IMG/VR virus record: IMGVR_UViG_2778261574_000004 | Span: 1-4,311 of that record | Strand: one strand, 5' to 3' | Source of the DNA: a virus | Taxonomy: Duplodnaviria > Heunggongvirae > Uroviricota > Caudoviricetes | DNA length: 4,311 nt | In this document: positions 1 to 4,311 of the stretch, in pieces | Layout: each line of letters starts with the position of its first letter | Numbering within the stretch: the first letter of the stretch is position 1 | Translations under genes and position numbers: made by a program | The notes under the pieces: model-generated | What the model saw: the letters and a program-made list of their open reading frames with translations, nothing else | The model's database searches: none | What the model was told of the DNA's origin: nothing

Positions 1-17
1 ACCTTGGTTTAAGAGAA
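1..17. other. Left DNA-invertase crossover site (hix/gix/cix-like), truncated by the window start; only the inner half-site GGTTTAAGAGAA (6..17), core TT (4-5) and 3 nt of the outer half are present
   Basis: Positions 1..17 ACCTTGGTTTAAGAGAA are the reverse complement of the inner half and core of the right site (4276..4292). The core dinucleotide is TT here versus AA at the right site, i.e. identical in inverted orientation as needed for inversion by a serine invertase. Confidence 0.6.
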
Positions 18-182
18 CTCGGTACCAGCGGTGAAAAGATCCCCTTGTTGAGCACGGCTAACACATGGAGTGCGCGCCAGACTTTCAACGGCGGGATCAC
101 CGGGGCACTGACAGGGAACGCCGATACCGCGACGAAATTGAAAACAGCCAGAAACATTAATGGCGTCAGGTTCGATGGTTCT
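1..182. repeat. Inverted repeat block A, left copy (pairs with 4111..4292)
   Basis: Direct comparison with the reverse complement of 4111..4292 gives 180/182 identical. The two mismatches (pos 45 T vs C, pos 107 A vs G) are both synonymous (Leu TTG/CTG, Ala GCA/GCG). Identity stops abruptly after the codons for FDGS (182). Confidence 0.95.
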
Positions 183-1565
183 ACGAACATTTCGATACCA
201 ACAATTACGTCTAGAGGACGCGTTACTGCGCTTACCGGTACAACGCAAGGTGCTGCTACTGGATTGCAGATGTATGAGGCATACAACAATGGTTATCCAA
301 CGACTTACGGGAATGTACTTCACCTGAAGGGAGCAGCATCCACTGGTGAAGGCGAGTTGCTCATTGGCTGGAGTGGCACAAATGGCGCTCATGCACCTGC
401 TTTCATTCGATCCAAAAGAGATAGCACTGCTGCGGCATGGTCCGAATGGGCGCAGATCTATACGTCAAAAGATTCAGTTCCCGGCGTCAATGCTAAAGGG
501 GATCAGGATACCTCTGGTAATGCGGCTACAGCGACTAAATTGCAGACAGCATGTACTATTAACGGTGTCTCGTTTGATGGTTCTAAAAATATTGAGCTAA
601 CGGCGGAAGATTTAAATCTTGAGCAAACCGTAGAATTAGCCGCTGGATCATTGCAGAAAAACCAGAACGGCGCAGATATTCCAAACAAAGATAAATTTAC
701 GCAAACAATAGGTGCTTGCCGCTCTTTTCATGGTGCTATTAGCACAGGTGCAGGAAACTGGACGACGGCACAATTGATTGAATGGCTGGATTCTCAAGGG
801 GCATTCAATCACCCATACTGGATGTGCAAATGTTCATGGTCATACGGCAATAATAAAATTATTACCGATACTGGCTGTGGAACTATTCATCTTGCAGGTT
901 GCGTTATTGAGGTTATGGGTAATAAAGGTGCCATGACCATCCGTGTAACAACACCAAGCACTTCCACCGGAGGTGGCACCACTAATGCGCAATTTACTTA
1001 TATAAACCATGGCGCAGATTACGCCCCAGGCTGGCGGCGCGACTACAGCACAAAAAACCAGCAACCTGCATTTGCTTTAGGGCAGACAGGAAGCACAGTT
1101 GGAAATGACAAAGCTGTTGGATGGAACTCAATTAGCGGGGTTTATAACGCAAATATTGGTGGAGCATCTACGTTAATTCTTCATTTTTATATGGGAGCTG
1201 GTAGTTGTCCGGCTGTTCAGTTCCGCGTGAATTATAAGAACGGCGGTATTTATTATCGTTCAGCGCGTGATGGTTATGGATTTGAGGCTGACTGGTCAGA
1301 GTTTTACACCACGACCCGCAAACCCTCTGCGGGAGATGTTGGTGCATACACGCAGGCAGAATGTAACTCAAGGTTTATTACAGGTATTCGCCTTGGCGGT
1401 CTGTCATCTGTTCAGACATGGAATGGTCCCGGCTGGTCTGACAGGTCAGGTTATGTCGTTACGGGTTCAGTTAACGGAAACCGTGATGAATTGATTGATA
1501 CAACTCAGGCAAGGCCAATTCAGTATTGCATTAATGGGACGTGGTATAACGCGGGGAGTATTTAA
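3..1565 (+). CDS. Tail fibre protein, variable C-terminal part A (5'-partial; frame enters from upstream of the window through the left crossover site; first in-window start candidate is TTG at 45; stop TAA 1563..1565)
   Basis: Long ORF (506 aa from TTG 45) whose frame stays open back to position 3 ([22 protein letters not shown]...). Two copies of a fibre-repeat-like motif GNAxTATKLxTAxxINGVxFDGS (nt 114..182 and 516..584), which I recall from lambdoid/P1/Mu-type side tail fibres. Gly/Asn/Thr/Ser-rich beta-type composition; C-terminal tip motif IRLGG...INGTWYN shared with the minus-strand fibre; immediately followed by a tfa gene. Confidence 0.88.
   Translation, partial: LGLRELGTSGEKIPLLSTANTWSARQTFNGGITGALTGNADTATKLKTARNINGVRFDGSTNISIPTITSRGRVTALTGTTQGAATGLQMYEAYNNGYPTTYGNVLHLKGAASTGEGELLIGWSGTNGAHAPAFIRSKRDSTAAAWSEWAQIYTSKDSVPGVNAKGDQDTSGNAATATKLQTACTINGVSFDGSKNIELTAEDLNLEQTVELAAGSLQKNQNGADIPNKDKFTQTIGACRSFHGAISTGAGNWTTAQLIEWLDSQGAFNHPYWMCKCSWSYGNNKIITDTGCGTIHLAGCVIEVMGNKGAMTIRVTTPSTSTGGGTTNAQFTYINHGADYAPGWRRDYSTKNQQPAFALGQTGSTVGNDKAVGWNSISGVYNANIGGASTLILHFYMGAGSCPAVQFRVNYKNGGIYYRSARDGYGFEADWSEFYTTTRKPSAGDVGAYTQAECNSRFITGIRLGGLSSVQTWNGPGWSDRSGYVVTGSVNGNRDELIDTTQARPIQYCINGTWYNAGSI
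438..619. repeat. Inverted repeat block B, left copy (pairs with 3677..3858)
   Basis: Reverse complement of 3677..3858 matches 438..619 with about 5 mismatches (about 97 percent), including perfect runs of 40-66 bp. Encodes WSEWAQ(I/V)[14 protein letters not shown](D/N)[16 protein letters not shown](C/R)[22 protein letters not shown] in both fibre genes. Mapping is left x to right 4296-x. Confidence 0.95.
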
Positions 1566-1567
1566 CG

Positions 1568-2101
1568 ATGATGCACTTAAAAAACATTACTGCTGGCAAC
1601 CCTAAAACAAAAGAGCAATACCAGCTAACAAAGCAATTTAACATCAAATGGCTTTATTCAGATGATGGAAAAAACTGGTATGAGGAACAAAAGAATTTCC
1701 AGCCAGACACTTTGAAAATGGTCTATGACCATAACGGCGTTATTATTTGTATTGAAAAGGATGTTTCAGCAATTAATCCAGAAGGCGCAAGCGTCGTTGA
1801 ATTACCTAATATTACAGCAAATCGCCGTGCTGACATTTCTGGTAAATGGATGTTCAAAGATGGCGTAGTGATAAAGCGAACTTATACCGAGGAAGAACAG
1901 AGGCAACAAGCTGAAAATGAAAAGCAAAGCCTATTGCAACTTGTCAGGGATAAAACCCAACTGTGGGACTCACAGCTACGGCTGGGCATCATTTCCGATG
2001 AGAATAAACAGAAATTAACCGCGTGGATGCTATATGCGCAGAAAGTAGAATCTACAGATACCTCCATCCTGCCAGTAACGTTTCCCGAACAACCAGAATG
2101 A
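1568..2101 (+). CDS. tfa: Tail fibre assembly protein (Tfa/U-type chaperone), partner of fibre A
   Basis: ATG at 1568 (second ATG at 1571) lies 2 nt after the fibre stop, with GGGGAG (1553..1558) as Shine-Dalgarno. 177 aa. C-terminus ...LTAWMLYAQKVESTDTS...PEQPE resembles the conserved Tfa C-terminal motif (recalled lambda Tfa ...LEAWKKYRVLLNRVDTS...). N-terminal ~100 aa about 70 percent identical to the minus-strand paralog. Confidence 0.85.
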   Translation: MMHLKNITAGNPKTKEQYQLTKQFNIKWLYSDDGKNWYEEQKNFQPDTLKMVYDHNGVIICIEKDVSAINPEGASVVELPNITANRRADISGKWMFKDGVVIKRTYTEEEQRQQAENEKQSLLQLVRDKTQLWDSQLRLGIISDENKQKLTAWMLYAQKVESTDTSILPVTFPEQPE

Positions 2102-2104
2102 GAA

Positions 2105-2131
2105 AAGGCCCGTTATCGGGCCTTATTTTTT
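2105..2131. terminator. Bidirectional rho-independent terminator between the convergent tfa genes
   Basis: Perfect 8-bp stem AAGGCCCG (2105..2112) / CGGGCCTT (2117..2124) with 4-nt loop TTAT and 6 GC pairs; followed on + by ATTTTTT (2125..2131) and preceded by GAAAA (giving a U-tract on the minus strand). Sits between the + tfa stop (2099..2101) and the - tfa stop (2130..2132). Confidence 0.7.
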
Positions 2132-2657
2132 ACTCAGGTTTTTGTGGCCATTCTGGCTTTGCCGTATCCACGCGGCTTACAAGAACGCTGTAGCGTTCCC
2201 ATGCTTCCAGTCGGCTGTGGTCCTCATCCGTTGCCATATTCAGCCTTACTGCACGCTCTAGTAGTTGAATGACTGATTCAGCATCAGCAAGAAGTCTAGC
2301 TTTCTGATTTTCTACCTGCTGCTGTAATTCCTCTGCCGTATAAATACGTTTAATAACTGCGCCATCCTTAAACATCCAGTTACCTGAAATGTCGGCACGT
2401 CGGTTAGCAGTAATATCCGGCACTTCAACAACACTTAATCCATCCGGTCTGATAGCTGTTACATCCTTTTCCACATAGCGGATGATGTTATCTTTGTCAT
2501 ACGCTAATTTTATCGTGTCATCCTGGAAGTTCTTTTGTTCCTCATACCAGTTTTTACCGTCTTCTGTAAAAAACCAGATGACATCAAAATGTTTCGTCAG
2601 CTGGTATTGCTCAACTGTTTTTGGATTACCCGCTGTTATATTGATCAAATGCTGCAT
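2130..2657 (-). CDS. tfa: Tail fibre assembly protein (Tfa/U-type chaperone), partner of fibre B; start taken at the ATG (revcomp of 2655..2657) 4 nt after the fibre B stop, not the upstream start at 2855 in the ORF track
   Basis: The 241-aa track ORF overlaps the fibre B 3' end by about 200 nt; the internal Met ([14 protein letters not shown]...) aligns with the start of the plus-strand tfa ([14 protein letters not shown]...). C-terminus ...[27 protein letters not shown] matches the recalled Tfa family C-terminal motif well. Confidence 0.85.
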
Positions 2658-2661
2658 AAAT

Positions 2662-4311
2662 TTAAACCTGTGCCACGTTATACCATGTTCCGTTAATATA
2701 TTTCTGTACCGGTCTATAATATACGCCACCAATGTTATCGGCAGAGTTTGAACCGGTATCCTGGACAATAATGCCGGAATAAACGCAACCTGACGGTGCC
2801 TGATGGGTCCATGTTGTGCCATTATTTGCAGGTTTGTATGATGATGCGCCACCAAGCCTGATATCCCTTACATAGCGGGAATCAAAGTTGCCATAATTAC
2901 CTGGGATAATTTGCGAACCGCAAAGCCAGTTACCGTTATTATCCATGTACGCCTGACCATCGGTGCCATTGGCTGTCCTTGAGTTATTAATCATGTAGAT
3001 GCCAAATTGCTTGTTCCCCAGTCCACCTATCATGAACTTGCGGTCAACGTGATTCTGGCGAAGCAACGCCTGAGCGCTATCTGTATTAACTATATTTTTC
3101 CCAAAGATAGCGTTGTTATCGCGCATCTGAATCCACATACCATTACTGCTGTTAATAGCAAAACGGTCTGAAAGCGTCTCTCCTGAAACATTAAGTCCGC
3201 GTCCCATAGAAACTGCGCCAGTGGCATTATTAATCCATAATGGTCTTAATCCGTTATAAGTCCCCATGTTGTCACCGGAGTTTGTCAACATGAAGTATGT
3301 ATTTGAACCATCATTACGGATAAAAAACCCGTAATTACCATAAGCAATACGGAGGCCGTTTGCTGATTTTGATATTACTTCGCCATTTATAATGGCGTTG
3401 ATAAGAACATACAAAGCATCCCATTTAAGATTCATCAGGTCTTTTGTTGTAGTGCTTTGTTTGCTTCTCCATTTGAAATATTCATTGCCGTTGTCGCCTG
3501 TTTCAAACCACATGAATGAATCAGTATCGCTGTCGGCATCATTTTTAAAACCAATCTTCGCCCAATCAGTATTTCGAATCCAGGCAAGGATTGAGTCATT
3601 TTCAAAAGTAAGCCCGCCGGACAAGATATCGCCTGAACGCTGAACGGCATTATTTGCTTTATTAATGAATTCCTGTAAATTTAAATCTTCCGCCGTTAGC
3701 TCAATATTTTTAGAACCATCAAACGAGACACCGTTAATAGTACGTGCTGTCTGCAATTTAGTCGCTGTAGCCGCATTACCAGAGGTGTCCTGATTCCCTT
3801 TAGCATTGACGCCGGGAACTGAATCTTTTGACGTATAGACCTGCGCCCATTCAGACCAGTTGGCAGAATCAGTATCCCGCCGCGAACGGATATGTACTGG
3901 CGCATGGTCACCACTCGTGCCACTCCAGCCAATGAATAACTCACCTTCGCCAGCAGCGGTGGCACCTTTAAGGTGAAGCACATTGCCATAGGGGGAAGGG
4001 TAGCCATTGTTGTATGCCTCATACAGCTGAATCCCGGATGTTCCCTGTGCATTCGCCTCCAAGGCCGTTACGCGACCGCGTGATACCAGAGTATTGATAT
4101 TAATGTCACCAGAACCATCGAACCTGACGCCATTAATGTTTCTGGCTGTTTTCAATTTCGTCGCGGTATCGGCGTTCCCTGTCAGCGCCCCGGTGATCCC
4201 GCCGTTGAAAGTCTGGCGCGCACTCCATGTGTTAGCCGTGCTCAACAGGGGGATCTTTTCACCGCTGGTACCGAGTTCTCTTAAACCAAGGTTTTTGCGA
4301 ATTGCCTCCGT
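2662..4311 (-). CDS. Tail fibre protein, alternative variable C-terminal part B (5'-partial or silent copy; frame open from the window end through the right crossover site; first in-segment start candidate is TTG at 4245..4243; stop TAA revcomp 2662..2664)
   Basis: 527 aa from TTG. The first ~46 aa are identical to fibre A, the next ~85 aa about 70 percent identical, the next ~60 aa nearly identical (block B), and the remaining ~330 aa unrelated except the C-terminal tip (IRLGG...[11 protein letters not shown]). Same two fibre-repeat motifs (revcomp coordinates 4111..4179 and 3712..3780). The frame upstream of 4245 reads ...[22 protein letters not shown] with no stop to 4311. Confidence 0.88.
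3677..3858. repeat. Inverted repeat block B, right copy
   Basis: See left copy. The 3-nt offset difference from block A reflects one extra codon in the diverged patch on the plus-strand gene (255 vs 252 nt). Confidence 0.95.
4111..4292. repeat. Inverted repeat block A, right copy
   Basis: Reverse complement matches 1..182 with 2 mismatches; mapping is left x to right 4293-x. Confidence 0.95.
4276..4301. other. Right DNA-invertase crossover site, 26 bp: TTCTCTTAAACC-AA-GGTTTTTGCGAA (imperfect dyad around a 2-bp core)
   Basis: Seen in sequence: two 12-bp imperfectly inverted half-sites flank a central AA at 4288-4289. From memory it closely resembles the Hin/Gin/Cin/Pin site family (recalled hixL: TTCTTGAAAACC AA GGTTTTTGATAA). 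It sits exactly at the outer boundary of inverted-repeat block A. Confidence 0.75.

Follow-up and report, generated by a model that had tools for sequence, protein, structure and literature searches.

Orthology of an invertible tail-fibre segment in a P1-like phage-plasmid with the C segment of phage P1

Does a piece of phage DNA with two tail-fibre ends that face each other act as a switch of host range, and to which of the known switches does it belong? This question is raised by the stretch analysed here, 4,311 nucleotides (nt) that make up positions 1 to 4,311 of the tailed-phage record IMGVR_UViG_2778261574_000004 in IMG/VR. We refer to this whole stretch as the window. There are only two cassettes in the window, fibre A with its chaperone gene tfaA on the plus strand and tfaB with fibre B on the minus strand, and they are convergent. 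We suggest that the window comes from a P1-like (Punavirus, IncY) phage-plasmid and represents its invertible C-type segment, which switches the tip of the tail fibre, and we put the probability of this at about 0.93. The system is already known, the exact sequence family is already in RefSeq, and the departures from P1 are minor. Inversion of the C segment by Cin, together with its relatives in Mu, e14 and p15B, has been the textbook case of site-specific inversion and host-range switching since the early 1980s.

Orthology with the P1 C segment and the crossover sites

The window is colinear with the P1 C segment (NC_005856 32221-36484) over 96% of its length, with 88.7% nucleotide identity. 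The annotation of the P1 record runs in the same order, cixL, Sv', U', U, Sv and cixR, and places Sc outside cixR and cin outside cixL. By this comparison, the segment in the window and the P1 C segment are orthologous. Other nucleotide matches of the window are found in P7, D6 and RCS47, and its central 3 kilobases (kb) match the G segments of Mu and D108. The closest record is pRHB23-C01_3, a plasmid of Escherichia fergusonii (95,926 base pairs (bp), IncY, non-mobilizable, from sheep faeces in the UK), in which 2 of the 4,311 bases differ from the window. Another copy, with 5 differences from the window, is carried by an E. coli blood isolate from Korea. The flanks discussed below, including the invertase gene and the constant fibre part, were read in pRHB23-C01_3 (locus L002) and not in the window.

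Two crossover sites are found. The 17-nt inner half-site with its core, TTCTCTTAAACCAAGGT, is present in exactly two copies, which are inverted, at 1-17 and 4276-4292. This pair has a chance expectation of 0.01, and in 200 shuffles two matches never occurred. No further crossover site was found in the window, even with 3 mismatches allowed. The site pattern TTCTCTTAAACC-AA-GGT... is inverted at window 1-17 (full in the source record) and at 4276-4301. On the Sc side, the inner half and core at 1-17 (minus strand) place 17 of the 26 bp inside the window, and the outer 9 bp lie upstream in the source record; the full site, TTCTCTTAAACCAAGGTATTGGATAA, is the same as P1 cixR at 26 of 26 positions. 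On the invertase side, the complete 26-bp site, TTCTCTTAAACCAAGGTTTTTGCGAA, lies wholly inside the window at 4276-4301 (plus strand). Its inner half and AA core are as in P1 cix, but its outer half is GGTTTTTGCGAA where cixL has GGTTTAGGATTG. The same outer half-site is found in phage SJ46 and in a 48.7-kb phage-plasmid. When the annotated P1 crossover points are transferred by colinear alignment, the crossover centres fall between 4 and 5 and between 4288 and 4289. By this transfer, the invertible segment proper is 5-4288, or 4284 bp, compared with 4256 bp for P1 C at NC_005856 32225-36480.

Long inverted repeats extend inward from the two sites. The outer arms are 1-191 with 4102-4292 (97% identity, 6 mismatches), and the inner arms are 267-626 with 3670-4029 (83%). 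The right arms (3670-4029 and 4102-4292) are 92-100% identical to the P1 repeat in each 50-nt bin. Over a divergent patch of about 270 nt in the Sv' arm, at about 180-450, identity with the other arm and with P1 falls to 50-78%. The arms are 84% identical overall, and the only highly similar stretches are 1-191 and about 450-600. Because of the divergent patch, the shared N-terminal part of the two variable regions differs (80% identity in amino acids (aa)). Only at 125 and 151 do the window and pRHB23-C01_3 differ, and at both positions the left arm of the window agrees with the right arm, as would fit gene conversion from arm to arm or a slightly different source isolate.

An initial annotation, made from the sequence of the window alone, had described a mirror-image arrangement of fibre A, tfaA, terminator, tfaB and fibre B with large internal inverted repeats, and had thought it most like P1 C. 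The open reading frame (ORF), Pfam and hairpin calls, the repeats and the P1 comparison agree with this. It had also described inverted 26-bp sites at both ends. The two inverted sites are there, and the right one is whole; the left one is cut by the window edge.

Inversion in sibling plasmids and the adjacent invertase gene

Both orientations of the segment exist in nature. pRHB23-C02_3, a plasmid equal in length to pRHB23-C01_3, was carried by a sibling isolate from the same sample. Over the 14.3 kb compared, the two plasmids agree fully in their flanks (5044 nt at the left, 5063 nt at the right), and the 4204 nt between the flanks are an exact reverse complement with 0 mismatches. This agrees with the limits of 5-4288. 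The first polymorphism between the arms, at window 45, moves with the segment, and the outer half-sites differ outside the core. Therefore, the exchange occurred within the outermost 44 nt, which hold the crossover core. This is what site-specific recombination predicts, and it is unlikely for homologous recombination over arms of 190-620 nt. A second pair, AP028849 and AP028829, is also an exact inversion with 0 mismatches. This second set consists of E. fergusonii plasmids from Japan (122,823 bp), which have a genuine cin of 186 aa and a related segment. The segment is evidently a real and active switch.

Both orientations give an intact fibre. The constant fibre part in the source record is 1361 nt (453 codons and 2 nt), which is the length of P1 Sc. 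In pRHB23-C01_3 it reads in frame across the left site into fibre A to give 973 aa, and in pRHB23-C02_3 it reads into fibre B, with tfaB following, to give 995 aa. There are no stops in either fusion. The frame of the silent cassette meets a stop about 32 codons outside the invertase-side site, and therefore the full fibre is made only from the cassette that faces Sc. In the plasmid annotations, the silent fibre cassettes are entered as independent "tail fiber protein" genes, and one of these overlaps the start codon of the invertase gene.

The gene beside the segment encodes a serine DNA invertase of 193 aa (L002 9366-9947). It is transcribed away from the segment and starts 55 nt past the right end of the window; its start codon is separated from the crossover site by 64 nt, of which the initial 10 are window positions 4302-4311 (plus strand). 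The protein has the Pfam domains Resolvase (PF00239) and HTH_7 (PF02796), it keeps the context YARVST of the catalytic Ser9, and the Mu Gin structure 3UJ3 aligns with the whole of it (E = 1.3e-71). Its identity is 61.6% with Gin and 59.7% with Cin, compared with 76.8% between Cin and Gin, and it is 100% in aa with the "pin" product of Salmonella phage SJ46. At the nucleotide level the gene is chimeric. Its initial 420 nt or so are 87-97% identical to the invertase gene of the 48.7-kb phage-plasmid family, and its last 150 nt or so are 82-95% identical to Mu gin. About 130 nt beyond it, and about 790 nt from the site, there is a stump of cin on the opposite strand (L002 10080-10304; 74 codons). 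The stump is the 5' part of cin and is 91% identical to Cin residues 1-69. It keeps 67 of the 72 nt in the interval annotated as the P1 inversion enhancer. Judging from the aligned interval, the locus may hold two enhancer candidates, one in the 5' part of the invertase gene and one in the cin stump. A scan for a Mu-like promoter overlapping the site gave two hits in the region, which is no more than shuffles give.

Several expectations of the initial annotation can be settled from these flanks. It had placed a constant fibre N-terminus outside the window, to be fused to either C-terminal part, and a serine recombinase of roughly 190 aa within a few kb, and it had looked to isolates for the flipped orientation. 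The 973-aa and 995-aa fusions, the 193-aa gene (of the Gin/Pin type and not Cin) and the two plasmid pairs with exact inversions bear this out. The fibre frame is not closed by a stop just outside both sites, with the constant part in frame at the left and the stop only on the silent side.

We infer that the adjacent chimeric Gin-type invertase does the flipping, though another invertase in the cell could act in trans. At somewhat less than even odds, we suggest a history for this arrangement. Here, cin would have been displaced by the chimeric invertase, with a catalytic domain from the 48-kb phage-plasmid family and a Mu gin-like DNA-binding end. The newcomer would have brought its own outer half-site, giving a working hybrid site, and the fibre switches of two co-resident elements might then be coupled via cross-acting enzymes.

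Could the segment instead invert by RecA-dependent homologous recombination between the long inverted repeats? Such a process would fit the truncation of cin and the presence of inverted repeats with 97% identity over 191 nt and 83% over 360 nt, but we regard it as very improbable. Homologous exchange is expected all along the arms and works poorly on as little as 44 nt. The exchange between pRHB23-C01_3 and pRHB23-C02_3 is restricted to the outermost 44 nt including the crossover core, all arm polymorphisms from 45 inward travel with the segment, and an intact Gin-type invertase gene is present 55 nt beyond the right end of the window.

We give still less weight to a frozen relic, in which a P1 C homologue has lost its switching through the destruction of cin. 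Only 74 codons of cin remain, and a truncated or reversed cin has been suggested as likely to impair the switch in pSvP1, pTZ20_1P and pJIE250-3 (PMC6906374). However, otherwise identical sibling plasmids from one sample have opposite orientations. A full-length invertase with an intact catalytic motif is found in place of cin, and both sites, the fibre frames and the chaperones are intact. P1-like plasmids with altered cin genes are already on record (PMC6906374), and the sibling pair indicates that the switch still turns in a lineage with a broken cin, which is a small correction to the suggestion of impairment in that work.

The orientation difference between the siblings could also be an artefact of assembly across the inverted repeats, and we find this about as hard to accept as the relic. 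Assemblers can be misled by inverted repeats, and the evidence consists of finished records. Nevertheless, the inversion is exact, free of mismatches and bounded at the crossover sites, and it is repeated in an independent plasmid set from another country. A mis-join would need reads for both junctions, which is itself a sign of a mixed population. The least probable alternative is a shufflon like p15B Min, with at least three sites and at least three fibre variants. P1-like plasmids with Min-type invertases do exist (PMC6906374), but the window has only two sites (3 mismatches allowed) and two cassettes, and this candidate was rejected.

With site-specific inversion of a C-type segment as the preferred reading, there are points that weigh against it. 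The window is without the invertase and without the constant fibre part, and the flanks are taken from a record that differs from it by 2 bases. Both orientations were seen in finished assemblies of sibling isolates, not in reads from one culture. The cognate cin is cut to 74 codons, and the adjacent invertase is only about 60% identical to Cin and Gin. The outer half of the invertase-side site is unlike cixL. In the new invertase gene, the interval that matches the P1 enhancer (gene nt 19-90) is ungapped and identical at 45 of 72 nt. In addition, there is no consensus sigma-70 promoter between the crossover site and the start of the invertase gene.

Proposed mechanism and the two fibre tips

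We propose the following mechanism. A late promoter of the tail-fibre operon, upstream of R-S, would drive the constant part (453 codons), which would read over the 26-bp site into whichever variable cassette faces Sc. The serine invertase beside the other site would pair the two inverted sites, cut at the central AA/TT dinucleotide and rotate the strands, so that the 4284-bp segment is flipped. One orientation would give Sc-Sv' (973 aa) with the chaperone U', and the opposite orientation would give Sc-Sv (995 aa) with the chaperone U. The central hairpin would halt transcription before it makes an antisense run into the silent cassette. An enhancer bound by Fis, acting with the invertase, would lead to inversion at low frequency, as established for P1 and Mu; for this locus, the need for Fis and an enhancer is presumed by analogy with these phages. 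Since the receptor-binding parts differ, a lysogen would therefore release two kinds of virion with different host ranges. For P1-type inversion, the release of two virion types from induced lysogens has been described (PMC6906374; bioRxiv 10.1101/2022.07.24.501295).

The variable C-terminal part of fibre A lies at 3-1565 (plus strand; 520 codons and a stop). The ORF tool lists it from 45, and the frame is open from base 3. Its aa identity to P1 Sv' is 88.8% overall and 98-100% in the final 120 aa or so, and over its C-terminal 320 aa it shares 83% with Mu S'. It is followed by tfaA, the gene of a tail-fibre assembly chaperone for fibre A (1568-2101, plus strand; 177 aa), which is of the P1 U' type with 93.8% identity to P1 U' and 96.0% to Mu U'. 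Between the convergent cassettes there is a G+C-rich hairpin at 2105-2124, AAGGCCCG-TTAT-CGGGCCTT. Six of its 8 pairs are G-C, it has a T-run on the plus strand, and a terminator-like structure is called on either strand. On the minus strand, tfaB (2130-2657; 175 aa) encodes the chaperone for fibre B. It is of the P1 U type with 77.1% identity to P1 U and 74.9% to Mu U, and at the nucleotide level it is closer to P2-like phages. The variable C-terminal part of fibre B, of the P1 Sv type, lies at 2662-4293 (minus strand; 543 codons and a stop), and its frame extends past 4293. With the segment oriented as in the window, this cassette is the silent one. It is 89.3% identical in aa to P1 Sv and 83% identical to Mu S over 347 aa. 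Thus, the comparison with P1 and Mu fibres and chaperones proposed in the initial annotation returns orthologues of Sv', U', U and Sv at 77-96%.

Domain searches agree with these assignments. Both chaperones, tfaA and tfaB, are Caudo_TAP tail-fibre assembly chaperones in Pfam, and both fibre ORFs carry the Phage_fiber_2 repeat twice, with gp37_C in one and Gp34_trimer in the other. The copies of this phage tail-fibre repeat (PF03406) are at 114-191 and 516-593 on the plus strand, with mirror copies at 3712-3780 and 4111-4179, and they explain the short direct and inverted repeats D1, D2, I4 and I5. A scan of six proteins against NCBIfam gave no family at the curated cut-off.

The two fibres share about 80% identity over their initial 219 residues, which correspond to the inverted repeat. 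After this shared N-terminal part, about 235-250 residues are unrelated, and there is a weak match of 38% in the final 70 residues or so (E = 1e-7). The C-terminal domains had been called unrelated to each other, which holds for the 235-250 residues; it does not hold for the 219 shared N-terminal residues or for the weak match at the end.

The tip of fibre B has been altered. Its residues 481-520 or so, near the tip, are a swapped block with 15% identity to P1 Sv. The corresponding interval with tfaB, window 2130-2897, is 40-77% identical to P1 and Mu and 85-87% identical to P2-like Peduovirus phages. From this pattern of identities, it looks like the result of horizontal exchange of a module made up of the tip and the chaperone. 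The same module is also present in chromosomal prophages of many E. coli.

The receptors can be predicted by comparison with P1. Because the last 120 residues or so of fibre A are 98-100% identical to P1 Sv', it is reasonable to infer the same receptor specificity. By analogy, O-antigen is expected to be the receptor of fibre A (S' type), and glucose of the lipopolysaccharide (LPS) core is expected to be that of an S-type fibre. The receptor of the P1 S form is glucose of the LPS outer core, and the P1 mechanism and the S and S' host ranges have been reported (bioRxiv 10.1101/2022.07.24.501295). The host ranges of the two orientations are known for P1 and Mu themselves only. Since the tip block of fibre B has been replaced and its chaperone has diverged, the receptor of fibre B may be distinct from that of P1(S).

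P1-like phage-plasmids spread resistance genes in Escherichia and Salmonella, and a working two-state switch bears on the prediction of their host reach. The P2-like tip on fibre B bears on host prediction too. In addition, the locus is a natural example of module swapping, of the invertase, a half-site and a fibre tip with its chaperone, in a conserved switch frame.

Comparison with known systems

The closest system is the C segment of P1. The gene order Sv', U', terminator, U, Sv is the same, and so is the place in the genome, with the R-Sc operon on one side and the lyd/dar genes on the other. The site next to Sc is identical to cixR, both sites have the inner half and AA core of P1, and the constant part is likewise 1361 nt. 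The surroundings are also P1-like. Upstream there are homologues of baseplate, tail-tube and R genes and then the fibre gene, downstream there are homologues of holin, lysis, hdf and darA genes, and R, Sc, lydC, lydA, lydB, hdf and darA are in P1 order. Plasmid annotations call the homologue of the P1 baseplate gene bplA in this region (L002 850-2283; also in loci L003, L004, L007 and L008) "bleomycin hydrolase", apparently in error. There are four differences from P1. In P1, an intact cin converges on the segment, with its 3' end overlapping cixL, whereas here there is an outward 193-aa invertase gene and a cin stump. The P1 arms are about 100% identical over about 600 nt, whereas the arms here are 84% identical with a divergent patch of about 270 nt. 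The invertase-side site is a hybrid here, and replacement has affected U (77%) together with a block of fibre B close to its tip.

The G segment of Mu is similar in its proteins and in the placement of its enzyme. The C-terminal 320-350 aa or so of both fibres are 83% identical to Mu S' and S. The invertase gene lies outside the segment and is transcribed away from it like gin, and Gin is the closest solved structure. However, the Mu segment is about 3 kb with short inverted repeats (34-bp class), and the inner half-sites of gix are TTCCTGTAAACCGAGG. Mu S has a short constant part, and the Mu genome is that of a transposable Mu-type phage.

The published P1-like phage SJ46 (NC_031129) is the nearest relative for the invertase side. 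Its outer half-site, invertase gene and cin stump fall in a stretch of about 1 kb that is 99.7% identical to the one here and occupies the same position. SJ46 differs in having other, shorter fibre and chaperone cassettes (about 3.2 kb between the sites) and slightly different inner half-sites. It is absent among the 25 matches listed for the window.

A second relative of the invertase side is a family of 48.7-kb phage-plasmids, which includes pRHB23-C01_4, the 48.5-kb plasmid of E. coli ATCC 25922 and Yersinia phage vB_YpM_39. These have the outer half-site GGTTTTTGCGAA and an invertase that is 88% identical in aa, and their fibre-tfa-tfa-fibre module is about 82% identical to window 649-3207. 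They differ in their backbone, in the segment, which is of Mu G size (about 3.07 kb) with gix-like inner half-sites, and in the invertase, which has 184 aa and a different C-terminal end. One of them, pRHB23-C01_4 (48.7 kb), is in the same strain as pRHB23-C01_3, with sites at about 2933 and 6002 and the invertase gene at 6085-6639. Their similar half-sites and enzymes suggest that the switches of pRHB23-C01_3 and pRHB23-C01_4 might cross-react. Between the two sibling strains, no flip of the fibre module of the 48.7-kb plasmid was found, and the gene order is the same in both.

Another P1-like record, IMGVR_UViG_2582580933_000011, shares the constant part and the initial 400 nt or so of the segment (92%; from 3269-3668). 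It was the single IMG/VR match to an 89-nt pattern specific to the window, which had no match among the genome contigs searched. Beyond this it has different cassettes, with ORFs of 847, 289 and 194 aa and, on the other strand, of 382 and 183 aa.

The wider family includes e14 Pin, Salmonella Hin and p15B Min, which are enzymes of the same kind acting on the same kind of 26-bp site, and the members of this family can stand in for each other. Hin flips a promoter, not fibre cassettes, and Min acts on six sites. The departures of the present segment from P1 are familiar mosaicism, and its invertase module is already annotated in SJ46.

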